Below are positions 6,790 through 26,496 of a stretch of DNA of 36,735 nt, one piece after another. The DNA comes from Candidatus Humimicrobiales bacterium (GTDB lineage Bacteria > Actinomycetota > Humimicrobiia > Humimicrobiales > Humimicrobiaceae). The notes below the pieces were generated by a model that was not told where the DNA came from, did not search any database, and saw only the letters and a program-made list of their open reading frames with translations. Within the stretch, counting starts at the first letter, position 1. Each line of letters opens with the position of its first letter. The stretch covers positions 1-36,735 of the forward strand of contig JBBQDW010000003.1 in assembly GCA_038320085.1 (NCBI GenBank), written 5' to 3'. The position numbers and the translations under genes were made by a program.

Positions 6790-7054
6790 TTTTTTTAAAT
6801 CCTTTTTTAGTCAGTTAAAAATTTAAATAGATTATAATTTAAAATTGGTGAAATTATAATATTTTTCTAAAAAACCTTTTTATGCTTTATGTAAAATCAT
6901 AGTGAAATTATAATAAAAAAGAAAATAAGAAAATAAAATAGTTTTACCGGCTGTCACTTAAAGAGCAGCTGTTAGAGAGTGTTGAAATTTACAAAAGATT
7001 ATGCGCTTAATGATAAAGGTTTATAAAGCGTTTTGTAAAAGCGTTTTGCAAAGG

Positions 7055-7082
7055 TTGAATTAAGTATTTAAAATAGTATAAT
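7055..7082 (+). promoter_or_regulatory. Sigma70-type promoter of hypB
   Basis: TTGAAT (7055-7060), 16 nt, TATAAT (7077-7082); AAAGCGTTTTG direct repeat immediately upstream. Confidence 0.5.
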
Positions 7083-7233
7083 CTTTTGGTTTTACACAGA
7101 CTGACAAGGTGATGGTAAAGAGAAGTCTTAAAAGAAAACAAATTAACATAATCTATTAAAAAAAACAGGCTTAAGGTCAACAGTTTTCATCCGGTTTTTA
7201 GCCTTGAGCGAAGCGAAAGGAATGGTTATAAAA

Positions 7234-7890
7234 ATGAAAATAGAAGTCGTTGAAAATGTAATGCAGTACAATAAAGAAGAAGCAGATATCAACAGGAGTC
7301 TTTTTAAAAGCAATAAAGTAATTGTCATAAATATACTTTCTGCGCCGGGAGCCGGCAAAACAACACTTATAATGGAGACAATAAGAAGGATTGGCAAAAA
7401 ATATAAAATAGGGGTAATAGAGGGTGACATATCTTCAACTCATGACTCTGAAAAAATAAAATCCTTAACAGATGATGTAGTACAGATAAATACTGGCGGA
7501 ACATGCCATCTTAATGCTTCAATGGTTGCAAAAGCAGTAGAGAAACTTGACATTGGTAGTCTTGACATATTGTTTATAGAAAATGTGGGCAACCTAATCT
7601 GTCCTGTCGGTTTTGACCTTGGTGAGTCGTACCGGCTGCTCCTCTCTTCTGTCAGTGAAGGTGATGATAAACCTGTAAAATATCCCAAAGCTTTTATTAA
7701 AACTGACCTTGTAATATTAAATAAAACTGACATGATGCCATATAGTGATTTTAATGATGATTTTTTTACCGCAAAGATTAAAGAGCTAAACCCTGAAATT
7801 GAAATAATCCGGCTGTCCTGTAAAAATGGCCTGGGTGTGGATAGCTGGATAAACTGGGTTGAAAAAAAATTCGAAGTATTAAAATATTAA
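7234..7890 (+). CDS. hypB: Hydrogenase nickel-insertion GTPase HypB (no His-rich N-terminus)
   Basis: SAPGAGKT, IEGD, TGGTCHL, IENVGNLICP, EGDDKP.KYP, NKTD; ATG 7234 after AAAGGA chosen over TTG 7204. Confidence 0.95.
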   Translation: MKIEVVENVMQYNKEEADINRSLFKSNKVIVINILSAPGAGKTTLIMETIRRIGKKYKIGVIEGDISSTHDSEKIKSLTDDVVQINTGGTCHLNASMVAKAVEKLDIGSLDILFIENVGNLICPVGFDLGESYRLLLSSVSEGDDKPVKYPKAFIKTDLVILNKTDMMPYSDFNDDFFTAKIKELNPEIEIIRLSCKNGLGVDSWINWVEKKFEVLKY

Positions 7891-7931
7891 TTAGCTATAT
7901 ATATTTTTCCTTCCCGGAGTATTATTTTTTA

Positions 7932-8030
7932 TTGTTACAAACTTATTACAAATTTGCAGTTTTTTATTGCTATAATTATTTGGAAGTGATAATATAACTT
8001 GATTTTTAAAAAGTTACAAAAATGTTACAA
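7932..8030 (+). promoter_or_regulatory. Promoter region with two pairs of 11-bp-period (G/A)TTACAA direct repeats and an extended -10
   Basis: ttgttacaaa 7932 / ttattacaaa 7943; gttacaa 8013 / 8024; TGcTATAAT 7968-7976. Confidence 0.5.
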
Positions 8031-8198
8031 GTGGATTAAATTTTTCTTAAAACGAGTTGATTTTTTGCTTTGCCGGTTGTTAAGAAACCGGGATAAATGA
8101 AAGCTTTTTAAATCGTTTAAGAAAAACAGGTATAAATTAAACCTTTTAGCGTAAAGATATTAATAAGAAAAATATAGACGGTCAGACAGCAGTGTAAA

Positions 8199-9164
8199 AT
8201 GCGTATAAAGTTTGGAAAATATTTATTAGTATTAGAAATAAACAACAGCGGCAGTACCGGCCCAGGCAAATCGGACGGCCCGGCTGCCGGTACCGGAAAC
8301 TCGGCGGATACCGATAAAGCTTTACCGGATACTTTTGATTCTGCCGCAGATACCGGCACTGCCGCCGGTACTTGCAACCAGGGGGCAGGGACTTCTAAAT
8401 CTTTAGAGCATGCTGAAAAAACTTTATGCGGTGCCGACAGTACTTCGGCCGCCAATTCCAAATCACCGGCCAGCCTTGACATTAGCGATATTAACACCAT
8501 GGAGTTTGTATCGCACGAGTTAAAAGGAGTGCTGGGCTCAACGATTTTATGCGTGTATTCAATAAGGGATGGTTTGCTTGGAATGCTTAATTTCAAGCAG
8601 CGCGCAAGCATAGAGACAACGATAAGAAATCTGCGCAGGCTTGAATCGACAATAAAGGACTTTCTGGACATTTCCAGGCTTGAAGATGGAAAATTAAAAA
8701 TCCGCAAAACAAATATTAATGTAAACGAAGATATAATAAATGAAGTTGAAGACGCTTTTTTAACAGAGATTTATGAAAACAGGGTGGTTTTTGAAAACAA
8801 GATTTCAAAGGACCTGATAATAGTTTCAGACAGGACACTGCTTATGACAATTTTTAATAATCTTGTCAGTAATGCAATCAAGTACGGTGTTAAGGAAGGC
8901 AGTATTGTTATAAGCGCAGAAAAAGAGGGCGATAATCTAATAAGATTTGTAGTATACAATGACGGAATACCGATAACACCGGAAGATAAATCGAAATTGT
9001 TTAAAAAATTCTCGCGCCTTGAGAAGGAACATGATAAAAAAATAAAAGGTACCGGACTGGGGTTGTTTATTATTAAAGATATAATTAAAAACCTTGGAGG
9101 AAGTATCTGGGTTGAAACAAATGATAACGGCAATGAATTTATATTTGAAATAGAAAGGGTTTAG
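8199..9164 (+). CDS. Cytoplasmic sensor histidine kinase (HisKA + HATPase), no recognisable sensor domain
   Basis: H-box FVSHELK, N-box NNLVSNAIKY, NDGIPI, F-box LFKKF, G2 GTGLGL; N-terminal ~100 aa are mostly Gly/Ser/Thr/Ala-rich with no transmembrane segment. Confidence 0.9.
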   Translation: MRIKFGKYLLVLEINNSGSTGPGKSDGPAAGTGNSADTDKALPDTFDSAADTGTAAGTCNQGAGTSKSLEHAEKTLCGADSTSAANSKSPASLDISDINTMEFVSHELKGVLGSTILCVYSIRDGLLGMLNFKQRASIETTIRNLRRLESTIKDFLDISRLEDGKLKIRKTNINVNEDIINEVEDAFLTEIYENRVVFENKISKDLIIVSDRTLLMTIFNNLVSNAIKYGVKEGSIVISAEKEGDNLIRFVVYNDGIPITPEDKSKLFKKFSRLEKEHDKKIKGTGLGLFIIKDIIKNLGGSIWVETNDNGNEFIFEIERV

Positions 9165-9166
9165 TT

Positions 9167-12100
9167 ATGGCAACAGCTATAGAAAACCTGAAAAGTATCA
9201 AACAGGGAGCAATACAGGACCTTATAGAAAAAGGCCTGCTTTCTGCCACTCGAATTTACGTAGGTATGTCTACGTGTGAGATTGCTGCAGGAAGCAAAGA
9301 TGTGTGGGATACTTTTCAGAAAGAGATCGCGGACAATTCGATAAAAGATATACAGTTAAAGCAGAAAGGCTGCGCCGGAAGATGTAACCTTGAACCGACT
9401 GTCGAAGTTTTGCAGGCAGGAAAGGTGCCATTCAAATACATAAACGTAAACAGCGAAAAAGCAAAAGAGATTATTAAAAAACATATTCTCGAAAACAATG
9501 TCCAGTCAGCAGAAAGATCAGAAAGCTTAAAAACGGATCCCTTCATGCTGACAGACAGGTCAAAGTTTGTTTTCGGTGATGTTGATTTTTTTAGCAAGCA
9601 GAAAAGAATCACCCTTAGAAACTGCGGGATCATTGATCCTGAAAGCATTGATGATTATCTTTCCGTAAGAGGCTATGAATCTTTAGCGAAAGTACTTACA
9701 GAATACACCCCAGCGCAGGTAATTGAAGAGATAACCAAATCCGGACTAAGAGGCAGGGGCGGGGGAGGCTTTCCGACAGGGCTCAAATGGAAACTTGTCG
9801 CACAGGAAGAGGAGAAGGAAAAATATGTCATCTGCAATGCCGACGAAGGTGATCCGGGCGCATTTATGGACAGAAGCGCCCTTGAAGGAGATCCGCATAT
9901 TGTGCTTGAAGGCATGGTGATAGCAGGCTATGCAATTGGCGCAAAAAAAGGTTTTGTCTATATAAGGGCAGAATATCCTCTTGCAATTGACAGGCTGAGG
10001 ATCGCAATAAAAGATGCAGAAAAATACGGATTTTTAGGCAAAAATATCCTGGGTACGGGGTATGATTTTGATATAGAGCTTGTACTTGGGGCTGGAGCAT
10101 TTGTCTGCGGCGAGGAAACAGCGCTGATACACTCGATAGAGGGAGGCAGGGGCGTTCCGACAACAAAACCGCCTTATCCTGCTGCGCGTGGGCTCTGGGG
10201 CAAGCCGACCCTTATAAATAATGTGGAAACATTTGCAAATATAGGCGTAATAATACTTGACGGTTACGAGAATTTTGCTTTAATCGGCACAAAAGAAAGC
10301 AAGGGCACAAAGGTTTTTGCGCTTTCTGGAAAGGTCAATAATACCGGGCTCATAGAAGTGCCGATGGGTATTACTTTAAGAGAGATTGTCTATGATATCG
10401 GCGGCGGCATAAAAGACAACAAGAAATTTAAGGCATTGCTGACAGGCGGACCCTCCGGCGGATGCATACCGGAGGAATTTCTTGACAGTACGGTAGATTA
10501 TGATTCTTTAAAAGCGCTGGGCTCTATTATGGGTTCAGGCGGGATGATAGTGCTTGATGAAGATGACTGTATGATAGATATTGCACGATATTTTCTTGAG
10601 TTTACACAGAATGAATCCTGCGGGAAATGTACCCCCTGCCGCGAAGGCACTAAAAGAATGCTTGAGATATTGACCAGGATCACTTCCGGAAATGGGGAGC
10701 AAGAAGACATCGATAATCTGATGCGCCTTGCAAATCTTATAAAAAAGACAGCGCTTTGCGGGCTCGGACAGTCTGCACCAAATCCGGTACTGACAACAAT
10801 GAAATATTTTAAAAATGAATATGATGAACATGTGAGATTAAAAAAATGCAGGGCAGCGGTGTGTAAGGGCATAATCTCATCTCCTTGCCAGCACTCATGT
10901 TTTATCGGCGGCAGCGGTATCCCTTCCTACATAGGCCTTATGGCCCAGGAAAAATTTGATAAGGCTGTACAGATACTTTACAGCGAAAATCCTTTGCCGA
11001 TTATTTGCGGGAGGGTGTGCCATCATCCATGTGAAAGCAAATGCAGGAGAGGGAAAATAGACAAACCTATAGCCATAAGGGAAATCAAGAGATTTCTTAC
11101 CGACTATGCCATGGAAAACAAGTTGGACAGCATGCCGGTCCCTAATGCGGCAAAAGACGGGAAAGTCGCTATTATCGGTTCGGGCCCTGCAGGACTTACA
11201 TGCGCTTACTATCTTGCGCTTGAAGGCTATAAAGTTACTATTTTTGAAAAACTGCCTGTTGCCGGAGGAATGCTTGCTGTTGCAATACCGGAATACAGGC
11301 TTCCAAAAGCATTGCTCAAATACGAAATAAATAATATTTTAAGCCTTGGAGTTCAGCTTAAATTAAATACTGAAATCGGAAAAGATATAAGTTTTTCTGA
11401 TATCAAAAAAGAATTTAATGCAATATTTATTGCAGCAGGAGCCCATAAAGGATTAAAACTTGGTATTCCAGGTGAAGATTTGCCTGGAGTAATAGACGCA
11501 GTCGAACTGCTCAGGGATATAAATCTTGGTAAAAAAGTAAATATCGGGCAAAAGGCAGCTGTGATAGGCGGAGGAAATGCTGCAATAGATGCAGTCAGGA
11601 CTTTAAACAGGCTTGGCGTAAAGGCGGACCTTCTTTACAGAAGAACCAAAAATGAAATGCCTGCCTGGCAGGAAGAAATAGACGAAGCCATAAAAGAAGG
11701 CATAAATATACAGTATCTGGTGGCTCCGGTAAGAGTGATTGCTGAAAACGGCAGGGTCAAAAAACTTGAGTGCATCAGGATGGAGCTTGGTGACATAGAC
11801 AAAAGCGGAAGACGTCGTCCTGTGCCAAAGCAAGGCTCAGAATTTATCATTGAAATAGACACTCTTGTCCCGGCTATAAGCCAGGAACCTGATATTGGCT
11901 TTGTTTCAAGTGAAAACGGCGGAGGAATCAAGCTCTCAAAATGGAAGACTATAGAGGTCAATAATGAGACTTATTATACCGGCTCAGAAGGTATTTTTGC
12001 AGGCGGGGATGTTGTGCTTGGCCCCAAAACAGTTACTGAGGCCATGTCTCATGGAAAGGTTGCAGCCGGGATGATAGACAAATATATAAAGGGTGAAGAG

Positions 12101-12319
12101 CTTACCAGGGAATACAGCGTTACAAAGCCCGCTGCTGATGTCGCCATTGTAGAAATGACGGAAGAGGAAATCGAAAGCCTTGAAAGATTTGATATCCCAA
12201 TGCTTGAAATGGCTCAAAGAAAAGGCAATTTTATTGAAACAGAATTAGGGTTTTCCATGCACCAGGCTGTATGTGAAGCAAAGCACTGCTTAAGGTGCGA
12301 TAAGGAGGAAAAAGAATAA
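9167..12319 (+). CDS. hydB: HydB/NuoF-type FMN/NADH subunit fused to a GltD/NfnB-like FAD/NADP(H) oxidoreductase module
   Basis: N-terminal thioredoxin-like FeS domain (VGMSTC..GCAGRC), SGLRGRGGGGFP, CNADEGDPGAFMD, FVCGEETAL, ESCGKCTPCREG; then CGRVC..PCESKC, GSGPAG, GIPGE, GGGNAAID, YRR, FAGGD. Confidence 0.9.
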   Translation: MATAIENLKSIKQGAIQDLIEKGLLSATRIYVGMSTCEIAAGSKDVWDTFQKEIADNSIKDIQLKQKGCAGRCNLEPTVEVLQAGKVPFKYINVNSEKAKEIIKKHILENNVQSAERSESLKTDPFMLTDRSKFVFGDVDFFSKQKRITLRNCGIIDPESIDDYLSVRGYESLAKVLTEYTPAQVIEEITKSGLRGRGGGGFPTGLKWKLVAQEEEKEKYVICNADEGDPGAFMDRSALEGDPHIVLEGMVIAGYAIGAKKGFVYIRAEYPLAIDRLRIAIKDAEKYGFLGKNILGTGYDFDIELVLGAGAFVCGEETALIHSIEGGRGVPTTKPPYPAARGLWGKPTLINNVETFANIGVIILDGYENFALIGTKESKGTKVFALSGKVNNTGLIEVPMGITLREIVYDIGGGIKDNKKFKALLTGGPSGGCIPEEFLDSTVDYDSLKALGSIMGSGGMIVLDEDDCMIDIARYFLEFTQNESCGKCTPCREGTKRMLEILTRITSGNGEQEDIDNLMRLANLIKKTALCGLGQSAPNPVLTTMKYFKNEYDEHVRLKKCRAAVCKGIISSPCQHSCFIGGSGIPSYIGLMAQEKFDKAVQILYSENPLPIICGRVCHHPCESKCRRGKIDKPIAIREIKRFLTDYAMENKLDSMPVPNAAKDGKVAIIGSGPAGLTCAYYLALEGYKVTIFEKLPVAGGMLAVAIPEYRLPKALLKYEINNILSLGVQLKLNTEIGKDISFSDIKKEFNAIFIAAGAHKGLKLGIPGEDLPGVIDAVELLRDINLGKKVNIGQKAAVIGGGNAAIDAVRTLNRLGVKADLLYRRTKNEMPAWQEEIDEAIKEGINIQYLVAPVRVIAENGRVKKLECIRMELGDIDKSGRRRPVPKQGSEFIIEIDTLVPAISQEPDIGFVSSENGGGIKLSKWKTIEVNNETYYTGSEGIFAGGDVVLGPKTVTEAMSHGKVAAGMIDKYIKGEELTREYSVTKPAADVAIVEMTEEEIESLERFDIPMLEMAQRKGNFIETELGFSMHQAVCEAKHCLRCDKEEKE

Positions 12320-14079
12320 TGAGCGATACTATAAAAATTAATGTAAATAACAAGGATTACGATGTTGAGTCCGGCCAGACAATTATGCAGGCCCTTGACA
12401 AAATAGGCTTTCATCTCCCAAGGCTATGTTATCATCCGAAGCTTTCTGTTGAAGGAGCATGCAGGATTTGCATTGTAGAGGTCGAAGGTAATGCAAATTA
12501 TGTTACTAGCTGTACTGCAAAAGTTGCTGAGGGTATGAAGGTAAAGACAAATACTTCAGATTTAAGAAAAGCAAGAAGGGATTTGCTTGAGCTGATTTTG
12601 GATAACCACCCGATCGACTGCAATACCTGTGAAAGAGACAGCAACTGCGAGCTTCAGAAGGTTTCCAGGTCAATCGGTATTAAAAAAAGACATTTTTCCG
12701 GTGAAAAAAAATTATATGATATAGATCTTTCTTCTCCTTCAATTACAAGGGATCCTAATAAATGTATACTTTGCGGAAGATGCGTCAGGCTTTGCGCCGA
12801 GATCCAGGGGGTTAATGCAATAAACTTTGCCGGCAGGGGATTTAACAGTGTGGTCATGACAGCGTACAACAATCCCATAAGCAGCTCAGTTTGTATAAAT
12901 TGCGGCCAGTGCATAAATGTATGCCCCACTGCAGCTCTTTCTGAAAAGTATTATACCGTAGAGCTCTTCAGGGAGCTGTCCAGTGATAAAAAGTTGAAAA
13001 TCGTCCAGGTGGCGCCAGCCGTCAGGGCCGCTATAGGTGAAGCATTCGGATTTCCTGCAGGGACAAATTTTGAAAAACAGACAGTGGCCGCGCTTAGAAA
13101 ACTTGGTTTTGACCTTGTCTTTGATACCCAGTTTTCTGCGGACCTGACTATAATGGAAGAAGGCTATGAATTCCTGGAGAGATTTACAACCGGCAGAGAT
13201 CTGCCAATGATCACATCTTGTTCACCGGCATGGATAAAGTATGCAGAGCAGTTCCATCCGGAAATACTGCCTAATATATCAACCTGTAAGTCTCCCATGA
13301 GTATGCAGAGCTCAGTGTTGAAGACCTATTATGCGCAAAAGAGGGGGATTGACCCGAAAGATATTTTAAGCGTTGCAATAATGCCATGCACAGCTAAAAA
13401 ATATGAGGCCGATAGGGAAGAACTCAGCCTTGACGGTGTCAAGCTTACTGACATAGTTGTCACAACAAGAGAGATTGCATGGATGATAAAGTCAGCAGGG
13501 ATTGATTTGGCAAAAACTGAAGGAGAGGAATTTGATAATCTGTTCGGATTCTCAAGCGGCGCTGCTACTATTTTTGGTGTAACCGGAGGAGTAATGGAAG
13601 CAGCCCTAAGGACAGCTTATGAAGTATATATGGGTGAATCGATTATCGATCTTGAGTTTGCCGCTCTGCGTGGTTTTGAAGGCATAAAGGAAGCAAAGGT
13701 AATGCTTGGCGATAAAGAAGTCAGGGTCGCAGTGGCGCATGGCCTTGGAAATGCAAATATCGTAATAGACATGATGAAAAAAGATCCAAACAGATTTCAT
13801 TTTATTGAGATAATGTCATGTCCGGGAGGATGTATCAATGGCGGGGGCCAGCCTTATGCCGGTTCAGAATACGTTGCTTTGGACGAGGAGCTTCTAAAGA
13901 AAAGGGCAAGTGTTTTATACGCGCTTGACAGGGCCAAAACCATTAGAAGAAGCCATGAAAATCCTGAGATACAGAGGATTTACAAGGAATTTTTTGAAAG
14001 GCCATTGGGGCCGAAATCTCATAAAATCCTGCATACACATTATAAGCAGAAATATCCGACAGGTGTGTATAAAAAATAA
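12319..14079 (+). CDS. hydA: [FeFe]-hydrogenase catalytic subunit, group A, with 2Fe-2S, His-ligated 4Fe-4S and 2x4Fe-4S domains
   Basis: H-cluster motifs TSCSPAW, MPCTAKKYE, EIMSCPGGCINGGGQP; HPIDCNTC..C, CILCGRC, CINCGQC; C-terminal SHENP..LHT. Confidence 0.95.
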   Translation: MSDTIKINVNNKDYDVESGQTIMQALDKIGFHLPRLCYHPKLSVEGACRICIVEVEGNANYVTSCTAKVAEGMKVKTNTSDLRKARRDLLELILDNHPIDCNTCERDSNCELQKVSRSIGIKKRHFSGEKKLYDIDLSSPSITRDPNKCILCGRCVRLCAEIQGVNAINFAGRGFNSVVMTAYNNPISSSVCINCGQCINVCPTAALSEKYYTVELFRELSSDKKLKIVQVAPAVRAAIGEAFGFPAGTNFEKQTVAALRKLGFDLVFDTQFSADLTIMEEGYEFLERFTTGRDLPMITSCSPAWIKYAEQFHPEILPNISTCKSPMSMQSSVLKTYYAQKRGIDPKDILSVAIMPCTAKKYEADREELSLDGVKLTDIVVTTREIAWMIKSAGIDLAKTEGEEFDNLFGFSSGAATIFGVTGGVMEAALRTAYEVYMGESIIDLEFAALRGFEGIKEAKVMLGDKEVRVAVAHGLGNANIVIDMMKKDPNRFHFIEIMSCPGGCINGGGQPYAGSEYVALDEELLKKRASVLYALDRAKTIRRSHENPEIQRIYKEFFERPLGPKSHKILHTHYKQKYPTGVYKK

Positions 14080-14141
14080 ACTTAAAAGTTTTGAAGGGAT
14101 TATTTTTAATTAAGTGATAATGTTAGGATAAGAGGTAAGAA

Positions 14142-14675
14142 ATGGAAAATGTTATGCAAACAAGTGAAACTGTCAGCAATAAAAAATCAGAGCTTATAAG
14201 CTTTATTTCAGAAAAGCATGAAAAGGGCTATTACAATGCGGCGCTGATGTCTATTCTTCATAAAGCGCAGGAAATCTATGGCTACATAAGTGAGGAAGCC
14301 ATAGATACAATCAGCACGAAGATGGAGATACCGTCTGCACGTATCTGGGGCATAGTGACTTTTTATCATTACTTTACATTGATACCAAGAGGGAAATATA
14401 TAATATCTGTTTGCCTTGGGACTGCCTGTTATGTAAAGGGTTCAAAGCGGGTGCTAAACAAACTTAAAGAAATACTTGGTACCGAACTTAATGAAACCAC
14501 TTCGGATGGATTGTTTACAATAGAAGCAAAATACTGTCTTGGCTGCTGCGGACTTGCGCCTGTAATGATGATAAATGGTAAAGTCTATGAGAAACTGACA
14601 ACAAAAAAAATAGCTGCAATCATACATGGGTTAAGGGCCGAAAGCGATTTGGATTTTGCCGCCGCTGTAAACTAA
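14142..14675 (+). CDS. hydC: HydC/NuoE-type 2Fe-2S subunit
   Basis: LHKAQEIYGY, VTFYHYF, VCLGTACYVKG, CLGCCGLAP. Confidence 0.93.
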   Translation: MENVMQTSETVSNKKSELISFISEKHEKGYYNAALMSILHKAQEIYGYISEEAIDTISTKMEIPSARIWGIVTFYHYFTLIPRGKYIISVCLGTACYVKGSKRVLNKLKEILGTELNETTSDGLFTIEAKYCLGCCGLAPVMMINGKVYEKLTTKKIAAIIHGLRAESDLDFAAAVN

Positions 14676-14686
14676 AGTCTGCTATT

Positions 14687-14750
14687 TTGCAGTTTTTATT
14701 TGTTGTTATTGTTACATATTTTATTTAAAATATTGCAGTTTTTATTTGTT
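14687..14750 (+). repeat. Exact 18-nt direct repeat TTGCAGTTTTTATTTGTT (x2)
   Basis: Copies at 14687-14704 and 14733-14750; related sequence at 7954. Confidence 0.75.
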
Positions 14751-14808
14751 TAATTTTTAATAATCTAGTATCTTAATAAAAGTTTAATTTTACAGGAGGT
14801 ATATCCAA

Positions 14809-15195
14809 ATGAGTGGGAAAAAGATTCTTATTATTGATGATGACCCGGATTTTGTAGATTCGATAACAGCAGTGCTTGAAGCAAGAGACTATAAGGTGGA
14901 ATCTGCTCCGGATGGCACGGAAGGTTTCAAAAAAGCAAAGGAAATAATTCCTGACCTTATAATTCTTGATGTTATGATGACAAAAAACACTGAAGGTTTT
15001 GAAGTAAGCAGAGAATTCCAGAAAGATGAAGATTTAAAATCAGTACCGATAATAATGATTACCGGCATCAGGGAACAGATGAACCTGGCTTTCGGCTTTG
15101 AGCCTGACGGCACATGGCTCCCTGTTAAAGCTGTACTTGAAAAAACAATAAAGCCCGACCAGCTTCTGGCAAAAGTCGCAGAGTTTATAAATTAG
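14809..15195 (+). CDS. Stand-alone response regulator receiver (CheY-like)
   Basis: ILIIDDD, DLIILDVMM, PIIMIT, conserved Lys in LEKT; AGGAGGT RBS; no output domain. Confidence 0.92.
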   Translation: MSGKKILIIDDDPDFVDSITAVLEARDYKVESAPDGTEGFKKAKEIIPDLIILDVMMTKNTEGFEVSREFQKDEDLKSVPIIMITGIREQMNLAFGFEPDGTWLPVKAVLEKTIKPDQLLAKVAEFIN

Positions 15196-15221
15196 TTATA
15201 AATTAATTTTAAGTTGTTTCG

Positions 15222-15275
15222 GCTGATAATTTTGCCGAGATTGATGATTTTACAGTGGCTGGTGATTTTGCAGAT
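15222..15275. repeat. Degenerate 18-nt tandem repeat (x3)
   Basis: gctgataattttgccgag / attgatgattttacagtg / gctggtgattttgcagat. Confidence 0.6.
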
Positions 15276-15431
15276 TCTGAAACGTTTACGATAAAAAAAG
15301 CTTTCGATGAGTAAAAGATTATTCATTCGAAATGATGCCTGATTTCAAAATATTTTAATTAATTCTATAAATTGATGTGGTTTTAACTTAAAATTAATCT
15401 TTAATATAGTATTATCTAAGAAGGGAGACAA

Positions 15432-16460
15432 ATGCTTTATAAAGTTCTGGACAAGAATAATTATAAGGATTTCTTATCCGGCCTAATTAAAAATTATAAT
15501 GTGATAGGGCCAAAAAAAATAAATAAGGTCCTGCATGATTTTTTACCGGTTAAAAATTTTGACGAAATCGATCTTGGCTATGTAAAAACAACACTTCCTC
15601 CTGCAAAAAAAATATTATTTCCATCAGAAGAAGGGCTTATAAGCTATACTACAAATAATATTAAGATAGAGCCTTTAAACGAGAGTGAAGAAAAAATACT
15701 TTTTGGTATAAATGCCTGGGATTTAAACGGAATGAATTTTCTTGACAGGATATTTACAACCGATTTTATTGACGATAATTATGTGGAAAAAAGGGAAAAG
15801 CTGATTGTCATAGGAATGGATACCACTCCTTCTGATACTAATTTTGCAACTGAAATGGGTTCAGAATATGCCAACTCTGGATTTGACCTTTTCATGACAG
15901 ATATTGGCAGCAAATATTTTATAAGAGTTGCCACACCAAAAGGAACGGAACTTTTATCAAAATTTGCAAAGGTAAAAGAAGCTGCTGCAGCAGATTTCAA
16001 TGCTTACGATAAATTTAAAGAAGCCTACCAAAGCAAATTTAAAGTTTCTGCTGATGTAAGTAATTTTCATGAAAATTTTGAAGTGATATATGGCAAAAAT
16101 GAGTTATGGGACAGGCTTTCAAAAAACTGTTTTTCCTGCGGTTCCTGCAACCTTGTCTGCCCGACTTGTTTTTGTTTTAACGTGAAAGATGATATGAAAA
16201 TCGATTTAGAGACAGGTATTAAGTCACGTGAATGGGACTCTTGTATGATACCGGATTACGGACTTGTTGCCGGGGGGCATAATTTCAGGCCGAACAGGGC
16301 AAACAGGTTAAAGCAGCGTTACAGATGCAAGCTTAAAACATTCGTTGATAAATTCGGGACAAATTCCTGCATCGGATGCGGGAGATGTGTTGAGACATGC
16401 CTTGCCAAAATAAATATTTATGAAGATATTAATGCAATAAAGGAAGAGGTGAGTTTGTAA
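15432..16460 (+). CDS. Group 3b [NiFe]-hydrogenase beta subunit (AsrA-like 4Fe-4S protein)
   Basis: CFSCGSCNLVCPTCFCF, WDSC, CIGCGRCVETC; first of four contiguous subunit genes. Confidence 0.9.
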   Translation: MLYKVLDKNNYKDFLSGLIKNYNVIGPKKINKVLHDFLPVKNFDEIDLGYVKTTLPPAKKILFPSEEGLISYTTNNIKIEPLNESEEKILFGINAWDLNGMNFLDRIFTTDFIDDNYVEKREKLIVIGMDTTPSDTNFATEMGSEYANSGFDLFMTDIGSKYFIRVATPKGTELLSKFAKVKEAAAADFNAYDKFKEAYQSKFKVSADVSNFHENFEVIYGKNELWDRLSKNCFSCGSCNLVCPTCFCFNVKDDMKIDLETGIKSREWDSCMIPDYGLVAGGHNFRPNRANRLKQRYRCKLKTFVDKFGTNSCIGCGRCVETCLAKINIYEDINAIKEEVSL

Positions 16461-16462
16461 AA

Positions 16463-17323
16463 ATGGTATTGGAAATGGCAGAAAAAACAAAAAATCAACC
16501 TTTATATGTTCCGGATATAGCTACTATTACAGAAACGGAAGATCTCACCCCGACAGAAAAAAAGTTTGTTATCCGGTTTGACGATAAAGAAAAAAGGGAA
16601 CAGTTTACGTTTTTACCGGGGCAGTTTTTAGAAGTCACTGTTTTTGGAATAGGTGAGGCCCCATTTTCAATTCCTTCGTCTCCAAACCAAAAGGGCTCTT
16701 TTGAATTATGCGTAAGGAATATAGGAAGTGTCTCAGGCGCAATGCATAAATTAATGGTGGGAGCCAAAATAGGGATAAGGGGCCCCTTTGGAAAAGGCTA
16801 TTTTCCATATGAAAAAATGAAAGGAAATAATGTCGTTATAATTGCCGGAGGATTAGGCCTTGCTCCTGTACGCTCCCTTATAAAACTTATTCTTGAGGAC
16901 AGAAAAAGTTATAAAGGGCTTACATTGATCTACGGTTGCGTGGAACCAAATCTTTTACTTTATAAAGATGAAGTACAAGAATTAAAGAAAAGGGATGATA
17001 TTGACGTTATGCTTACTGTTGACAGGCCTGACGAGAATTGGAATGAATCAGTAGGAGTATGCACCAATCTTATTCCGGGACTTAAATATCTTCCCGAAGA
17101 TACTTATGCAGTCGTATGCGGCCCTCCGATAATGTACCGGTTTGTAATGATTGAGCTTGAGGAAAAGAAATATAAGCCGGAAAATATCTTTCTTGATATG
17201 GAAAGAAGAATGGAATGCGGAGTCGGCAAATGCAACCACTGTCACATAGGTGATAAATTATGTTGTGTTGACGGCCCGATATTCAGTTTATGGGAAATTA
17301 AGAACTTAAAGGAGGCATTATAA
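16463..17323 (+). CDS. Group 3b [NiFe]-hydrogenase gamma subunit (FAD/NAD(P)-binding, AsrB-like)
   Basis: PGQF, GEAPFSI, RGPFG, AGGLGLAP, CGPPIM, ERRMECGVGKCNHC, DGP. Confidence 0.92.
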   Translation: MVLEMAEKTKNQPLYVPDIATITETEDLTPTEKKFVIRFDDKEKREQFTFLPGQFLEVTVFGIGEAPFSIPSSPNQKGSFELCVRNIGSVSGAMHKLMVGAKIGIRGPFGKGYFPYEKMKGNNVVIIAGGLGLAPVRSLIKLILEDRKSYKGLTLIYGCVEPNLLLYKDEVQELKKRDDIDVMLTVDRPDENWNESVGVCTNLIPGLKYLPEDTYAVVCGPPIMYRFVMIELEEKKYKPENIFLDMERRMECGVGKCNHCHIGDKLCCVDGPIFSLWEIKNLKEAL

Positions 17324-18073
17324 ATGAGTAAGCCAAAAGTTGGAGTATTTGGTCTGACCGGCTGCGGCGGCTGCCAGCTTGAAATACTAAATCTTGAAGA
17401 TCAGCTGATAGATTTTATTAGTGCTGTTGACATTGTTCATTTTACAGAGGCCATTTCTGAGCATAGTGATACATATGAGATAGCTTTGGTTGAAGGCTCT
17501 GTTACAACCATGCATGATGTTGAGAGGCTTGAACATATCGGTAAAATAGCAAAAATCATAATAGCGGTTGGAGCATGCGCAAGCACCGGAGGGCTAAACT
17601 GCTTGAAAAACCTATATGGCACCGAAAGGGCCAAAGAGCTTGTTTATGGCGATAAAAAAGGATGGATAGATTCCATAGATACAAAACCTATAAGCGATTA
17701 TGTAAAAGTGGACTATCATGCAAGGGGATGTCCTCCCACAAGATCTGAAATAGTGGATATTGTAAGCGCACTGATAATGGGAAAAGTTCCTGAAATACCA
17801 AGTTATCCGGTTTGTGTGGAGTGTAAAAGGCTTGGAAATACATGTCTTTATGAATTTGGCATACGCTGTATGGGACCTGTTGCTAGAGCCGGCTGCAACG
17901 CAAGGTGTCCAAGCGCAAAATACAGTTGTGTCGCATGCCGCGGGTCGATAGATGATCCGAACGTAAATGCCCAGAAAGATCTTCTTTCACAATATGGACT
18001 TACAGTTGAAGACATTATGGAAGGTTTTAACCTTTATAACGCTTGTGTAAAAATAGAACAAAAATCTAAATAA
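17324..18073 (+). CDS. Group 3b [NiFe]-hydrogenase small (delta) subunit
   Basis: GCGGCQ, VEGS, GACASTGG, GCPP, VCVEC..CMGPVARAGC..CP..CVACRG. Confidence 0.93.
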   Translation: MSKPKVGVFGLTGCGGCQLEILNLEDQLIDFISAVDIVHFTEAISEHSDTYEIALVEGSVTTMHDVERLEHIGKIAKIIIAVGACASTGGLNCLKNLYGTERAKELVYGDKKGWIDSIDTKPISDYVKVDYHARGCPPTRSEIVDIVSALIMGKVPEIPSYPVCVECKRLGNTCLYEFGIRCMGPVARAGCNARCPSAKYSCVACRGSIDDPNVNAQKDLLSQYGLTVEDIMEGFNLYNACVKIEQKSK

Positions 18074-18095
18074 TTATTTTTTGGAGGTCAACGAT

Positions 18096-19397
18096 ATGGC
18101 GACAAATTTAAATATAGAAGTAACACCGCTGCCGAGGGTAGAGGGCCACGGAGATTTGGTGCTTGATGTAAAGAATAAGAAAATAGAAAAACTCCAGATG
18201 AGGATACCGGAATCGCCAAGGTTTTTTGAAGCGATGCTTGTTGGCAGGAATTATACTGAACCGTCATACATAACATCAAGGATTTGCGGGATATGTTCAG
18301 TTGCACATACTTTTACATCAATTAAAGCTACAGAAGCTGTTTTTGGCATTAAGCTTAATGACCAGATAATCAAACTAAGAAAACTTGTTAACCACGGAGA
18401 ATATATTCAGAGCAACAGCCTTCATGTATTTTTCCTGGCCGCTCCCGATTTTCTTGGCATTGGAAGCGTACTGCCTCTCCTTGAAACAAATCCGGCAATT
18501 GTAAATATTGCAGTAAAAGTAAAAAAAATAGGAAATGAAATAGTAAGAATAATCGGCGGCAGAGCTATTCACCCCCTGACAACCGTAGTTGGCGGATTTA
18601 CAAAATTGCCTTCAGCTGAAGATCTCCTTAGAATAAGGGAAATGCTGGTATCTTTGTATCCCGATGTTGAGACTTCCGTTAAAGTCTTAAAGACTTTAAA
18701 GATACCTGAATTTGAAAGGGAAACTGAATATATTTGTTTATCGGATAACGAAGACTATGCCCTCTATGACGGCGATATAAAGTCTTCTGATGGTTGGACA
18801 ATAAAGCCGCAAGAATATCTTAGCAGGATTAAAGAAACAGTTGTACAGCACTCTACAGGCAAGCATTGCAGTGCATCCAGGGATTCCTATATGGTTGGGG
18901 CCCTTTCAAGAGTAAATAATAACTATTCCCAGCTTACCGACAATGCAAAGACTTATGCTGAAGAACTTGGTTTGAAAGCGCCATGCTATAATACTTATAT
19001 GATAAACATTGCGCAGTTTGTAGAAATCGTACATAGTGTTGATGACAGCATAAGGCTCATCGACGAACTCCTTGCAAGCGGCCTTGACGAAAGCAAAACA
19101 ATGGCCGAAATAAAGCCAAAAGCCGGCAGGGGAGTCGGGGCTATGGAAGCGCCGAGGGGCCTTTTGATACATGATTATACATATAATGAAGAAGGTAAAG
19201 TCACCAAGGCAAATCTTATAATACCTACAAACATGAACTATGCAAACATTGAGCTGGATATGGCGCAACTGGTTCCGGCTATAATTGAAAAGACGGAGGC
19301 AGAAATACAGCTGGCGTGCGAGATGCTTATAAGGGCATACGACCCCTGCATTTCATGCTCGACTCATATGCTTAATATCGAGTTTGTGAATAAATAG
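18096..19397 (+). CDS. Group 3b [NiFe]-hydrogenase large (alpha) subunit
   Basis: RVEGHG, L1 RICGICSVAH, EAPRG, L2 RAYDPCISCSTH plus a short cleavable C-terminal tail; GGAGG at 18083-18087 supports ATG 18096. Confidence 0.95.
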   Translation: MATNLNIEVTPLPRVEGHGDLVLDVKNKKIEKLQMRIPESPRFFEAMLVGRNYTEPSYITSRICGICSVAHTFTSIKATEAVFGIKLNDQIIKLRKLVNHGEYIQSNSLHVFFLAAPDFLGIGSVLPLLETNPAIVNIAVKVKKIGNEIVRIIGGRAIHPLTTVVGGFTKLPSAEDLLRIREMLVSLYPDVETSVKVLKTLKIPEFERETEYICLSDNEDYALYDGDIKSSDGWTIKPQEYLSRIKETVVQHSTGKHCSASRDSYMVGALSRVNNNYSQLTDNAKTYAEELGLKAPCYNTYMINIAQFVEIVHSVDDSIRLIDELLASGLDESKTMAEIKPKAGRGVGAMEAPRGLLIHDYTYNEEGKVTKANLIIPTNMNYANIELDMAQLVPAIIEKTEAEIQLACEMLIRAYDPCISCSTHMLNIEFVNK

Positions 19398-19521: not shown

Positions 19522-20856
19522 ATGGTAAAACAAATCAAGGATACAATTGCAGATATTGGTAAAGCAGATGCAGAAGAAGAAGTATCGCTGCTGATAATGC
19601 CTGAAGAAGCTTTTGAGGGCGATTATATAATTGCCACCTATTTCTACGGGTCCAAAGTCGCAGGAGAAGATATATATGAGAAAGCCCAATCATTTGCAGT
19701 AGGGCAGACAATCGGGACATGGGTGCCCATACCGGGCATTACACCGCAGATGAAGAAGCAATATGGAGGCAAACTTGTAAGTATCTATGACATACCTCCT
19801 GCGGAACTTACAACAGATGAGCCGGAATTTAATTTCCATGTCATTCAGATTGCATTTCCGGATGAGAATTTTTCACCCCAGTTTCCCATGATGTTTACAA
19901 CCCTTATGGGTAATGATGTATCCACATCCGCACAGGTAAAGCTTGTAGACATCAAGTTTTCCCGGAAATACTTAAATGCATTTAAAGGGCCCGGGTTCGG
20001 AATCGATGGTATTTACAAATATCTTGGTATTCAAAAAAGAAGGCCCATAGTCCTTAATATGATAAAACCCTGCCTGGGTTACAGTCCTTCTGAAGGTGCC
20101 AAAATATTTAAAGAGATAGCTCTTGGCGGAGTCGATATTATAAAAGATGACGAGTTGCTTGCAGATACCGCCTATAGTCCGATAGTTGACAGGGTAAAAG
20201 CAAATAATACTGTATCAAAAGAAGTAGAAGCAATTACAGGACACAAGACAGTTTATTGTGTCAATATAACAGACAGGCTTGACAGATGCCTTGAAAACGC
20301 ACTCAGGGCAATTGACGCAGGAGCTAAAATGTTAATGATAAACTTTATAGCCTCAGGCCTTTCGACCTTGCAGGCTCTATCAGAAGACAGCAGAATAAAC
20401 GTTCCGGTTGTAGGGCATTACGCTGGCGCAGGTTCAATTACAGAATCCTGCAGTACAGGTCTTTCCACACCCCTGCTTCTGGGGAAAATGGCAAGAATGG
20501 CAGGGGCAGATATAGTTTTATTCAGTTCTCCTTACAGCACTTATCCGTTTCTTAAAAGAAGATACAGGCAAATTGCTGATATGCACAGGCTTGCACTGGG
20601 GGGCCTTAAATCAACAATGCCTGCAATTGGCGGGGGCGTCCATCCAAACAGCTCTGAAAAAATAGTAAAAGATCTTGGTAGAGAGATAATATTGGCAGTT
20701 GGCGGAGCAATACTCGGGCATCCAAACGGTCCGACTGAGGGCGCAAGGGCAATGATGCAAACGGCCCAAGCTCTGGGCCAGGGAATCAGCTTGTATGAAA
20801 TTGCCGGGGAAAAAGGGTATGAGTCATTAAAGATATCCCTGGATAAGTGGGAGTAA
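19522..20856 (+). CDS. RuBisCO-like protein (form IV)
   Basis: GQTIGTW, MIKPCLG, GGVDIIKDDE, VNIT, HYAGAG, GGGVH, GGAILGHP; several carboxylase active-site residues are replaced. Confidence 0.9.
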   Translation: MVKQIKDTIADIGKADAEEEVSLLIMPEEAFEGDYIIATYFYGSKVAGEDIYEKAQSFAVGQTIGTWVPIPGITPQMKKQYGGKLVSIYDIPPAELTTDEPEFNFHVIQIAFPDENFSPQFPMMFTTLMGNDVSTSAQVKLVDIKFSRKYLNAFKGPGFGIDGIYKYLGIQKRRPIVLNMIKPCLGYSPSEGAKIFKEIALGGVDIIKDDELLADTAYSPIVDRVKANNTVSKEVEAITGHKTVYCVNITDRLDRCLENALRAIDAGAKMLMINFIASGLSTLQALSEDSRINVPVVGHYAGAGSITESCSTGLSTPLLLGKMARMAGADIVLFSSPYSTYPFLKRRYRQIADMHRLALGGLKSTMPAIGGGVHPNSSEKIVKDLGREIILAVGGAILGHPNGPTEGARAMMQTAQALGQGISLYEIAGEKGYESLKISLDKWE

Positions 20857-23474: not shown

Positions 23475-24923
23475 TTACCATTTGCCGGTTTTTATATAAT
23501 CGTCCATTGCTATGGCAGCTGTTCTGCCTGCACCCATCGCAAGTATTACTGTCGCCGTGCCTGTGACTATGTCGCCGCCTGCAAAAACACCTTTTTTGCT
23601 TGTTTTGCCTGATTCATCCGCAACAATATTGCCGCGCTTGTTTAAAGTTATATCAGTGGATGTCTGCATAAGCACAGGATTAGGACCCTGGCCTATTGCA
23701 ATTACCACAATATCTGTATCGATCTCATATTCAGAGTCTTTGACAGGAACCGGCCTCCTGCGTCCTGAATCATCAGGCTCACCCAGTTCCATCCTGATAC
23801 ATTTTAATTTTTTGACCCATCCGTTTTCTCCAAGCAATTCAACCGGATTTGTTAAAAATACCATTTCAATGCCTTCTTCTATTGCATGGTGTATCTCTTC
23901 GATCCTGCCGGGCATTTCAACTTCGCTTCTTCTGTAGATTATGTATACTTTTTTGGCTCCAAGCCTTTTAGCGGTTCTTGCAGAGTCCAGTGCAACATTG
24001 CCGCCGCCAACAACAGAGACTATGTTTCCCTTTATAACAGGGGTGTCCCATTTTGGGAAAAGATATGCTTTCATCAGGTTTACCCTGGTAAGGTATTCAT
24101 TTGCAGAATATACGCCGTTAAGGTTTTCACCTGGAATCCCCATGAAATAGGGAAGTCCTGCGCCTGTCCCTATAAATATGCTTTTATAGCCGCTGTCAAG
24201 CAACTCATCTATTGTATAAGTCTTTCCAACTATCATATTTAGCTTTAAGTCAACTCCAAGGCTTTTTACAAAATCAACCTCCTGCTGAACGATAGCCTTC
24301 GGAAGCCTGAATTCGGGAATTCCGTATACAAGGACCCCTCCGGCATAATGCAGAGCTTCAAAGATTGTGACTGCATATCCAAGCTTTGCAAGTTCACCGG
24401 CGCAGGTAAGCCCTGCCGGTCCGGAGCCTATTACTGCAGTCTTTATTTTTTCCTTGACGGTATTTATGCTATCTGCAGGTCTGCTTTCCAAAGATTTAAT
24501 ACTGTATTGCTTTTCTTTATCGCTGTCAGCGACAAATCTTTCAAGCTTCCCGATTGCAACAGGGTCATCTTTTATTCCAAGTATACAGACCTTTTCGCAC
24601 TGGTCCTCCTGTGGGCAGACTCGTCCGCAGACTCCGGGGAGCGAATTTTTTTCCCTGATTTTTTCAAGAGCCTTTTTGTATTCTTTTTCCTTAATCAGGG
24701 CAATAAAGCTCTTTATATCGATTTCAACCGGGCAACCGTCTATGCACCTGGGTTTTTTGCACATAAGGCACCTGGAACTTTCGGCTAAGGCTTCTTCTTC
24801 AGTATAGCCTAACTCTACTTCATTAAAGTTATTTACCCTTACTTCAGGCCTCTGCTGCGCTATTTTGGTCCTTGGTATTTTGATTTTTTTTGGTTTTTCC
24901 CTATTTGTTATATCATCTTGCAT
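23475..24923 (-). CDS. nfnB: NfnB/SudA (GltD-like) large subunit of NADH-dependent reduced ferredoxin:NADP+ oxidoreductase
   Basis: RCLMCKKPRCIDGCP, CGRVCPQEDQCE, GSGPAG, YGIPEFRLP, SANEYLTRVNLM, GGGNVALD, YRR, TVILAMG; overlaps an nfnA-type gene. Confidence 0.9.
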   Translation of the reverse strand: MQDDITNREKPKKIKIPRTKIAQQRPEVRVNNFNEVELGYTEEEALAESSRCLMCKKPRCIDGCPVEIDIKSFIALIKEKEYKKALEKIREKNSLPGVCGRVCPQEDQCEKVCILGIKDDPVAIGKLERFVADSDKEKQYSIKSLESRPADSINTVKEKIKTAVIGSGPAGLTCAGELAKLGYAVTIFEALHYAGGVLVYGIPEFRLPKAIVQQEVDFVKSLGVDLKLNMIVGKTYTIDELLDSGYKSIFIGTGAGLPYFMGIPGENLNGVYSANEYLTRVNLMKAYLFPKWDTPVIKGNIVSVVGGGNVALDSARTAKRLGAKKVYIIYRRSEVEMPGRIEEIHHAIEEGIEMVFLTNPVELLGENGWVKKLKCIRMELGEPDDSGRRRPVPVKDSEYEIDTDIVVIAIGQGPNPVLMQTSTDITLNKRGNIVADESGKTSKKGVFAGGDIVTGTATVILAMGAGRTAAIAMDDYIKTGKW

Positions 24924-25989: not shown

Positions 25990-26496
25990 ATGAATGAAAC
26001 AGAAACAAACATTCAAAACTGCAGCCTGATAAAAATAATAGGGTTTGGCAATATTTTTATGGCGGATGACGGCATAGGAATACGTGTAATTGAAGAGTTG
26101 CAGCAGCAGCAGGTATTTAGGGACAACGAGAATATTGAGCTTGTTGACGGCGGGACCTCAGGGATCGACCTTATTTTTATGCTTCAGGATACGGGCAGGG
26201 CCATTATTATTGATGCCGTTGATGCCGGCCAGGAAATTGCGCAGATCGTGGTTTTTTCTCCGCATGAGATAGTGGGATTTAAAAAAAAGATTTTTAAAAG
26301 TTACTCTCTTCACGACATTGACCTTGCCGAGGCATTTGAGCTTGTAAGAAACCTTAATTCAGCAGCTGATATTAAAATTATAGGTATTAAACCAAAAAAT
26401 ATCTGCTACAGCGATAAACTCAGCCCTGAAATACAAAATAGTATCCCGGAAATAATAGCAAAGATAAAGGAAGAAGTGTCTGGCTGCAGGCTTTAA
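25990..26496 (+). CDS. [NiFe]-hydrogenase maturation endopeptidase (HybD/HycI family)
   Basis: IGFGNIFMADDGIG, DGGT, IIDAV, SLH. Confidence 0.93.
   Translation: MNETETNIQNCSLIKIIGFGNIFMADDGIGIRVIEELQQQQVFRDNENIELVDGGTSGIDLIFMLQDTGRAIIIDAVDAGQEIAQIVVFSPHEIVGFKKKIFKSYSLHDIDLAEAFELVRNLNSAADIKIIGIKPKNICYSDKLSPEIQNSIPEIIAKIKEEVSGCRL

Follow-up and report, generated by a model that had tools for sequence, protein, structure and literature searches.

A trimeric [FeFe]-hydrogenase operon whose HydB ends in a GltD-type FAD/NADP(H) module instead of the ferredoxin-like domain

The sequence studied here is contig JBBQDW010000003.1 of assembly GCA_038320085.1, from a Candidatus Humimicrobiales bacterium (GTDB Actinomycetota; Humimicrobiia); "the window" denotes the whole of this stretch, 36,735 nt. 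The genome to which it belongs (G000) is a metagenome-assembled genome (MAG) of 262 contigs that is 91% complete. On its forward strand, the window carries a hydrogenase operon in the order hydB*-hydA-hydC (B-A-C), in which hydB* encodes a fused HydB subunit, protein P0001. An earlier note on this DNA had claimed that this HydB exchanges the ferredoxin-output domain of canonical HydBs for an FAD/NADP(H) module. The features of the operon are given below with the evidence for each; invariance, here and later, refers to an alignment of 35 homologues of the fused HydB.

9167..12319 (+), fused HydB (BfuB-GltD fusion, P0001, 1050 aa); open reading frame, translation, Pfam, NCBIfam, PDB sequence search, AlphaFold2 and Foldseek
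9167..9496 (+), thioredoxin-like domain at the N-terminus of P0001 (B5 site); alignment with canonical and fused HydBs
9614..10846 (+), NuoF core with the FMN/NAD(H) site (GGGGFP, ADEGDPGAFMD, GEET), the SLBB domain and the B1 [4Fe-4S] site (C485, C488, C491, C531); Pfam
10568..10864 (+), ligands of the zinc (B2) hinge, C468, H555, C561 and C566; all four invariant
10850..11122 (+), Fer4_20 (DPD domain II) part of the module with C574/C578 and C614/C618/C622/C626; Pfam, invariant cysteines, alignments to NfnA, StnC and NfnL
11162..12055 (+), FAD and NADP(H) Rossmann domains with GSGPAG (671-676), GGGNAA (801-806) and YRR (824-826); Pyr_redox_2 and motifs
12173..12304 (+), C-terminal segment, counterpart of the NfnL N-terminus, which supplies C1041 and C1044; BLASTP and alignment
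12319..14079 (+), HydA, [FeFe]-hydrogenase catalytic subunit, 586 aa, whose start overlaps the HydB stop; Pfam, NCBIfam and PDB matches
14142..14675 (+), HydC, NuoE-type thioredoxin-like [2Fe-2S] subunit (C1 cluster); PF01257 at 166 bits, NCBIfam

In the Pfam map of P0001, Complex1_51K (residues 189-359), SLBB (383-432) and NADH_4Fe-4S (471-555) are followed by Fer4_20 (562-652) and Pyr_redox_2 (666-963), and NCBIfam likewise assigns residues 158-556 to the NuoF family and residues from about 525 to 1047 to GltD/NfnB-like models. The core matched NfnB (9n5u_B), StnB (8oh5_B), NiFe-HydB (7t2r_B) and A. woodii HydB (7q4v_B) in the PDB at about 674 bits. Its GEET motif may mark a preference for NADH at the FMN site. 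In the solved Bfu enzymes, the hinge binds zinc through three cysteines and one histidine and joins this core to the ferredoxin-like B3/B4 domain (PMC12018979). When canonical and fused HydBs were aligned, conservation extended through the hinge (H555-x5-C561-x4-C566) and was lost immediately after C566. Past this point canonical HydBs continue into two CxxCxxCxxxCP motifs, whereas P0001 and the other fused proteins continue into "SPCQHxC ... CGRVCHHPCExKC", the first cysteine of the module, C574, lying 8 residues beyond the last hinge cysteine. A Fer4-type dicluster (B3/B4) domain was not found in P0001 with Pfam, and CX2CX2CX3CP motifs are absent from it. The domain swap is real. All the motifs on which the earlier note relied are present at the positions it gave, namely ADEGDPGAFMD (aa 225-235, nt 9839-9871), GGPSGG (aa 427-432), DDC (aa 466-468), H-x5-C-x4-C (aa 555-566, nt 10829-10864), GGGNAAID (aa 801-808) and YRR (aa 824-826). 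CxxCxxCxxxC, which the note had found missing from the module, occurs nowhere in P0001. The module is nevertheless not free of Fe-S sites, as it holds eight invariant cysteines that could serve two [4Fe-4S] clusters.

These cysteines lie in the motifs PCQHSC (573-578), CGRVCHHPCESKC (614-626) and CLRC (1041-1044), and all eight are kept in 35/35 aligned homologues. By homology, C574, C578, C1041 and C1044 would bind one [4Fe-4S] cluster and C614, C618, C622 and C626 the other. Residues 568-1045 had C. saccharolyticus NfnA (9bov_A, 422 bits) as top PDB match, followed by T. sibiricus NfnA (9n5u_A, 382 bits) and S. ovata StnC (8oh5_C, 340 bits), and at lower rank by NfnL (4ylf_B, 331 bits; 5jca_L, 315 bits) and GltD (197 bits). 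The FAD and NADP(H) signatures reported earlier for the module are borne out: LLYRRTKNEMPA of P0001 aligned to the YRR of all five NADPH-binding chains (9bov_A, 9n5u_A, 8oh5_C, 4ylf_B and 5jca_L), and Y824-R825-R826 is invariant in 35/35 sequences. In StnC, GxGxxA has been proposed as the NADP(H) motif (PMC7483475).

The window also encodes an NfnAB-like pair (23475-25765, reverse strand), 9 kb from the hydrogenase, made up of an NfnL-like protein (23478-24923, reverse strand, 482 aa, Fer4_20 and Pyr_redox_2) and a 285-aa PyrK-like protein with DHODB_Fe-S_bind, whose gene is the only NfnS-like one in the window. Residues 585-975 of P0001 are 45% identical to residues 70-478 of this NfnL-like protein over 412 residues, and residues 1003-1046 align to its residues 9-57 (BLASTP, E 3e-8), while the alignment of the module with StnC/NfnA is collinear through the last residues. 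Because the tail of P0001 matches the N-terminus of NfnL and the rest aligns downstream, the module is a circular permutant of NfnL, just as StnC/NfnA are. An AlphaFold2 model of P0001 (mean per-residue confidence, pLDDT, 81.2; predicted TM-score 0.68) resembled BfuB chains in its N-terminal half (Foldseek, TM-score by target 0.83-0.92) and NfnA and NfnL in its C-terminal half.

The other two subunits are those expected of a HydABC enzyme. HydA scored 822.7 bits against NCBIfam NF040763 (group A6 NADH-dependent [FeFe] hydrogenase; cut-off 765) and consists of an N-terminal 2Fe-2S and 4Fe-4S chain and an H-domain with the motifs TSCSPAW, MPCTAKKYE and EIMSCPGGCINGGGQP; in the PDB it came closest to T. 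kivui HydA1 (609 bits) and A. woodii HydA1 (579 bits). It is the sole [FeFe] catalytic domain in G000, and the three H-cluster motifs are intact in 5/5 orthologues. The translation of HydC has the C-x4-C...C-x3-C pattern of the [2Fe-2S] cluster C1. In the L1 motif of HydA (13198-13218), TSCSPAW, a serine stands where the textbook form TSCCPxW has its second cysteine; this serine is shared by A. woodii HydA1 (7q4v_A) and all four orthologues, and T. kivui HydA1 has CC.

The junction near 10870 proved sound in independent data. When Logan contigs of a single study (four runs, other than the possible source sample) were placed on 9167-14675, two of them crossed the junction without gaps or joints: a 3373-base contig (X2 record 3) spanning 9629-13001 and a 1598-base contig (X3 record 11) spanning 10112-11709. 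Relatives were sought among 31 genomes, G000 and 30 related ones (G001-G030); the set includes the unpublished G026, which lacks HydA and on which no claim rests, and without it the denominators would be 30. Uninterrupted full-length orthologues of P0001 occur in G004 (94%), G001 (82%), G005 (81%) and G015 (79%), and G006 holds a fragment at a contig end. The order HypB-like gene, kinase, HydB*, HydA, HydC, regulator and four-gene NiFe hydrogenase cluster is kept in 4/4 relatives examined (G004, G001, G005, G015). In comparison with G004, the ratio of non-synonymous to synonymous substitution rates (dN/dS) comes to 0.030 in the core of HydB, 0.050 in its module and 0.026 in HydA; in the more distant pairs the synonymous sites were saturated. 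The operon is genuine and conserved, and the HydA orthologues are under strong purifying selection.

The fused subunit is also widespread. A homologue search of 5.8 billion proteins gave at least 8000 candidates, and among the 120 best matches listed all 120 combined a NuoF domain with Fer4_20 and Pyr_redox_2; their length is mostly about 1000-1090 aa (94-100% query coverage), a few are longer and a few truncated, and where the source names them they are mostly labelled "NuoF". A census with one genome per species (at least 599 confirmed relatives, of which 80 loci were kept) found the NuoF core and the GltD module in one reading frame in 58/80 loci. By record title, carriers belong to Omnitrophota, Armatimonadota, Chloroflexota, Aminicenantota, Acidobacteriota, Thermodesulfobacteriota, Bacteroidota, Verrucomicrobiota, Planctomycetota, Spirochaetota, Bacillota and Nitrospirota, with a Promethearchaeota record and one "uncultured archaeon", so that the fused subunit spans more than 10 bacterial phyla and two archaeal records. 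Three classes of partner gene were seen among the 58 fused loci: an [FeFe] HydA directly downstream (17/58); a NuoG-like/molybdopterin (formate-dehydrogenase-like) gene (16/58, 9 downstream and 7 upstream); and only a NuoG-N-terminus match downstream (16/58), mostly in a short protein, the exception L041 being the HydA of a second HydC/HydB/HydA set. The remaining 9/58 lie at a contig edge or have no partner.

In the third class, the gene after the short BfuA-like protein belongs to PF01645 (glutamate synthase FMN-domain) in 3/3 loci examined. These loci, L013:10129-12464 (Aminicenantales), L045:10042-13734 (Promethearchaeota) and L057:10165-12430 (Gemmatimonadaceae), run from the fused BfuB-GltD through a short 2Fe-2S/4Fe-4S BfuA-like protein to a PF01645 protein of about 525 aa, and in the archaeal locus L045 a glutamate dehydrogenase gene comes next. 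This set of genes may represent a NuoEF-linked glutamate synthase. G000 itself has a second full-length fused paralogue, 54% identical to P0001, at contig C46 2416-5598. Its divergent neighbours on C46 (1-5598; loci L002 and L006) are a gene of the NuoE-like kind and a formate-dehydrogenase-like (NuoG/molybdopterin) gene that is truncated at the end of the contig, and a thioredoxin-reductase-like gene lies downstream. Fused and canonical forms also meet in single loci. In L041:7452-14921 (a Verrucomicrobiota MAG), one cluster comprises a fused BfuB and, after it, a second HydC, then a canonical HydB and HydA, and in L010 and L030 a fused and a canonical HydABC set stand side by side. Genes resembling StnC/NfnA, with a NuoG N-terminus, a GltD module and the rest of NuoG, were seen at L017:2394-5403, L023:4043-6169 and L080:8812-10857; they adjoin a fused BfuB-GltD in L017 and L023 and a canonical HydB in L080. 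Both placements of the module can co-occur in one locus.

To follow the history of the fusion, 44 of 102 rows were chosen for a careful maximum-likelihood tree of the NuoF core, with four distant canonical HydBs as root and 200 bootstrap trees; quick trees were made of the core (all 102 rows) and of the GltD module. On the careful tree, the window clade and a sister fused clade form a group of 7 rows (support 100/97) that nests inside a clade (100/98) with four canonical HydBs; an upstream HydC match was seen for 0/4 of these four, and HydA and/or HydC downstream in B-A-C order for 3/4. The label fused or canonical requires 6 changes on this tree, at least 4 of them being forced by well-supported branches, and a history with a single change is allowed by 0/200 bootstrap trees; the quick core tree agrees, with 7 changes. 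On the quick module tree, the module of the window clade is sister to another fused group (P0023, P0031, P0074, P0111 and P0112) and that of the core-sister clade is placed elsewhere, which tentatively suggests that the module of the window clade was exchanged relative to its sister. Because the label changes on the core tree and because the module tree is discordant with it, the C-terminal module of BfuB is, by these phylogenies, one that was swapped repeatedly in evolution. Such repeated swapping lends indirect support to the idea that the ferredoxin-like and GltD modules hold the same functional position.

The architecture as such is already in print, so that what the earlier note put forward as its best candidate for a novel system is not newly seen. 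A genomic study of 2018 observed the same HydB architecture in the second trimeric [FeFe] hydrogenase of Vallitalea guaymasensis L81 (PMC6163223), and Zheng and Huang in 2024 described it as sub-type I BfuB, with DPD_II and an FAD/NAD(P) domain for B3/B4, stating that its function needs study and placing homologues in Hydrogenedentota and other phyla, including two cultured strains, Syntrophus gentianae DSM 8423 and Desulfotignum balticum DSM 7044 (PMC11406978). As in the window, these HydABC clusters have DPD_II (Fer4_20) and an FAD/NAD(P) domain where B3/B4 would be. The text of PMC11406978 gives the B-A-C order only for sub-type III, which has a canonical C-terminus, whereas the fused HydB of the window has the B-A-C order and its NuoF core groups with canonical B-A-C HydBs. 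The Bfu survey of Schut et al. 2022 defines BfuB as requiring the ferredoxin-type domain IPR017896 (PMC9304861), a requirement that would exclude the fused forms; the main text of that survey uses none of the words GltD, glutamate synthase, NfnL or fused, and its supplementary tables may list such forms. The earlier note knew of no biochemical characterisation, and none was found in full-text literature searches, subscription journals and supplements being outside their scope; passages of PMC5736913, PMC7325909, PMC6085437, PMC12918512 and PMC9012536 likewise yielded nothing that bears on the matter. The operon is a further member of a described, biochemically uncharacterised kind of hydrogenase. 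What our study adds is the circular permutation of the module and its affinity to StnC/NfnA, the repeated swaps of the C-terminal module, the three partner types (FeFe, FDH-like and GltB-like) and a lineage in which HydE, HydF and HydG appear to be missing; circular permutation, StnC/NfnA affinity and missing maturases go unmentioned in the text of PMC11406978 and PMC6163223, apart from what their figures and supplements may hold.

Several characterised enzymes share parts of this build. The canonical bifurcating HydABC of T. maritima, A. woodii and T. kivui (7p5h, 7q4v, 8a6t) have HydA, HydC, the HydB core, B1 and the zinc hinge in common with the window, whose HydB differs in having a GltD module for B3/B4 and a B5 site with 3/4 cysteines. 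Nfn-Bfu/StnABC (8oh5, 9bov, 9n5u) have the BfuBC core and a permuted GltD-type NADPH/FAD/2x[4Fe-4S] module like that of the window; in these enzymes, however, it is BfuA (StnC/NfnA) that contains the module, as an insert feeding the mid-potential chain, BfuB retains B3/B4 for ferredoxin and there is no H-cluster, whereas in the window BfuB carries the module, at the low-potential exit, and a hydrogenase stands as BfuA. The module resembles the NfnSL large subunit (4ylf_B, 5jca_L) in fold, in its motifs for FAD and NADPH and in having two sites for [4Fe-4S] clusters, but the segment with two cysteines that is N-terminal in NfnL is C-terminal in the window module and the operon lacks an NfnS partner. 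The NADH-dependent, ferredoxin-independent HydAB(C) of Syntrophus and Syntrophomonas are described as having a HydB likewise without the ferredoxin-like dicluster domain; there the domain is simply missing, while the HydB of the window adds a flavin/NADP(H) module and keeps the hinge. Glutamate-synthase-linked [FeFe] hydrogenases, group A2 of HydDB, are defined by a HydA with a free GltD-like subunit and without NuoF or NuoE. By that definition the window differs from them, as it has NuoF and NuoE homologues and its GltD part is fused to NuoF.

In Bfu enzymes, FMN, B1 and BfuC's mobile cluster C1 make up the bifurcating site, and C1 passes low-potential electrons through B3/B4 to ferredoxin (PMC12018979), whereas the FAD of the NfnA/StnC module is a plain, non-bifurcating NADPH entry port into the mid-potential chain (PMC9304861, PMC12018979). 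The genes hydB*-hydA-hydC encode a HydABC enzyme (Bfu, A3/A6) in which a permuted GltD module replaces B3/B4 of HydB. We propose that NADP(H) takes the place of ferredoxin in it, a reading to which we give about an even chance. H2 would be split or formed at the H-cluster, and electrons would travel along the Fe-S chain of HydA to cluster B1 and FMN, at the NAD(H) site. The mobile [2Fe-2S] cluster C1 of HydC would then hand the second FMN electron to the two clusters of the GltD module instead of B3/B4, from where it would reach FAD and NADP+. The net reversible reaction would be 2 H2 + NAD+ + NADP+ = NADH + NADPH + 2 H+. The earlier note had likewise suggested that H2 might reduce NAD+ plus NADP+, or that the complex might transhydrogenate with no free ferredoxin; its interpretation is partly supported. 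The Bfu literature gives in-vivo potentials of about -280 mV for NAD and about -380 mV for NADP, and given these values, the coupling of NAD and NADP would count at low H2 pressure.

Two findings in G000 are counted in favour of the proposal: canonical HydB was not found in this 91% complete genome, and other routes to reduced ferredoxin are present, namely Rnf, two PFOR-type genes and the NfnAB-like pair. More NiFe hydrogenase large-subunit genes lie on contigs C6 and C72 of the genome, and a 49-kDa-type gene on C52. Several observations weigh against it. The anatomy does not demand energetic coupling, because at high H2 the reduction of NAD+ plus NADP+ needs no bifurcation, and ferredoxin may remain a substrate, because the [4Fe-4S] clusters of the module face ferredoxin in NfnL. 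The hinge residues 566-575 have a pLDDT below 50 in the AlphaFold2 model. The B5 site of P0001 has 3 of the usual 4 cysteines (C37, C69 and C73), with glycine at the first cysteine position, and C73 is the only B5 cysteine invariant across the 35 homologues; in T. sibiricus NfnB, the B5 site holds zinc and the enzyme nevertheless bifurcates (PMC12018979).

The maturases of the H-cluster are a further point against the proposal. In profile searches in which the control genomes B. thetaiotaomicron and T. maritima scored every time, G000 gave no HydF_dimer match, a HydG match of 17.7 bits and HydF matches that reached no more than 101 bits (cut-off 325). Among the 31 genomes, 9 have HydA; HydG exceeded its cut-off in 0/31 and HydF in 0/31, and HydE did so in 1/31 (G021), where a HydF fragment only lies beside HydA. 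None of the three was found in 8/9 HydA-bearing genomes, which are 85-100% complete, absence from incomplete MAGs being no proof. Elsewhere, of five further genomes with the fused FeFe type, picked from the 17, 3 had HydG over the cut-off, and the remaining two gave a truncated HydG match of 304.7 bits and, in a 1.1-Mb genome, none. Most archaea that bear [FeFe] hydrogenases are reported to have no maturases, an alternative maturation pathway has been proposed for them, and archaea and some eukaryotes without maturases nevertheless make active [FeFe] hydrogenases (PMC11216029). The absence raises the question how this lineage would assemble the H-cluster, if it does so at all, and because the maturases were not found we lowered our confidence that the complex handles H2 here by about a tenth.

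Other readings of the same anatomy have to be considered. The enzyme might have two ports and no bifurcation, NADH at FMN and NADPH at FAD each exchanging electrons with the H-cluster independently and uncoupled. It would then be like the ferredoxin-independent, NADH-dependent HydAB(C) of syntrophs, supplemented by a port for NADPH. Two such ports would fit the degenerate B5 site, the closeness of both nucleotide couples to H2 in potential and the reports that HydB enzymes without B3/B4 do not bifurcate (PMC7311640, PMC9304861). However, the zinc hinge and HydC, which are the parts for conformational gating, are strictly kept, whereas the non-bifurcating homologues of the Bfu survey are described as lacking B2-B5 entirely (PMC9304861), and the module is placed exactly at the low-potential exit; we therefore consider uncoupled ports rather unlikely. 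It is less probable still that the complex has two bifurcating centres, the FAD of the GltD module acting like the L-FAD of NfnSL with ferredoxin docking at the outer [4Fe-4S] cluster, in effect a hydrogenase with a built-in Nfn, through which H2, NAD(H), NADP(H) and ferredoxin would all be connected. Zheng and Huang put forward just this possibility for sub-type I BfuB (PMC11406978), the identity between the module and the window's NfnL-like protein is 45% over 412 residues, and both cluster sites of the module are kept; but its nearest solved relatives are the NfnA/StnC modules with a plain NADPH port (PMC9304861, PMC12018979), and the operon encodes no NfnS-like [2Fe-2S]/FAD partner.

The missing maturases, with HydG, HydE and HydF not found in 8/9 HydA-bearing genomes including G000, and the joining of the operon to a NiFe group-3b-like cluster in 4/4 relatives examined would also be in line with an absence of H2 chemistry in this lineage, the complex serving as an Fe-S/flavin transhydrogenase between NADH and NADPH or relaying electrons to the NiFe hydrogenase next to it. 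We judge this improbable, given the three H-cluster motifs intact in 5/5 orthologues, the low dN/dS of HydA (0.026), the HydG of 3/5 other fused-type carriers and the active [FeFe] hydrogenases made without maturases in archaea and some eukaryotes (PMC11216029). Finally, an assembly or gene-calling error that joined a HydB gene to a separate GltD-like gene might be expected of a fragmented MAG of 262 contigs, but misassembly was rejected and the probability of such an artefact is negligible, because contigs of an independent study bridge the junction gap-free, four relatives have uninterrupted orthologues in synteny, the same one-frame fusion is found in 58/80 loci of many phyla and 120/120 homologues listed are of the fused type, most covering 94-100% of the query and few being truncated.

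If the proposal of NADP(H) on the low-potential branch holds, the enzyme would be a natural experiment on how the FMN/Fe-S "flavobicluster" gates its two exits, and anaerobes could make NADPH from H2, or burn NADPH and NADH to H2, ferredoxin-free. A wider possibility, which we advance tentatively as it has less than an even chance, is that BfuB-GltD proteins form a large overlooked Bfu branch in which NADP(H) replaces ferredoxin as the third, low-potential partner, with [FeFe] hydrogenase matured without HydEFG in the present lineage. Such a branch would mean a ferredoxin-free coupling of the NADH and NADPH pools that is H2-driven or formate- or glutamate-synthase-linked, as well as a bacterial [FeFe] maturation without HydE/HydF/HydG, which has so far been proposed mainly for archaea. 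The missing maturases carry the open archaeal question over to a bacterial lineage. Because the fused subunit is common and has several partner types, one assay would annotate thousands of genes labelled "NuoF".

The operon is flanked by two context genes, both identified with Pfam.

8199..9164 (+), soluble histidine kinase (HisKA and HATPase_c, low-complexity N-terminus), ending 3 nt before hydB
14809..15195 (+), single-domain response regulator

Their positions are conserved in G004, G001, G005 and G015, and because they occupy the same flanking places in these four related genomes, the kinase and the lone receiver domain may regulate the operon. When 6800-15600 was scanned for operon signals, 37 promoter-like sites were counted where 24.4 were expected, and 5 terminator-like sites where 7.1 were expected; none of them was informative. 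Directly 3' of the FeFe operon lies a four-gene NiFe hydrogenase cluster (15432-19397, forward strand), which comprises a Fer4_22 protein, an FAD/NAD protein with a DHODB Fe-S domain, a small subunit and a large subunit, and which by its layout looks like group 3b. The window also holds hydrogenase maturation genes, HypB-like, HycI, HypE-like, HypD and HypF (7204-7890, forward strand; 25990-33680). Just after the NiFe cluster, at 19522-20856 on the forward strand, a RuBisCO large-chain-like protein is encoded, which matches PF00016 at 124 bits in two stretches, the better one covering profile positions 5-172 of 299.

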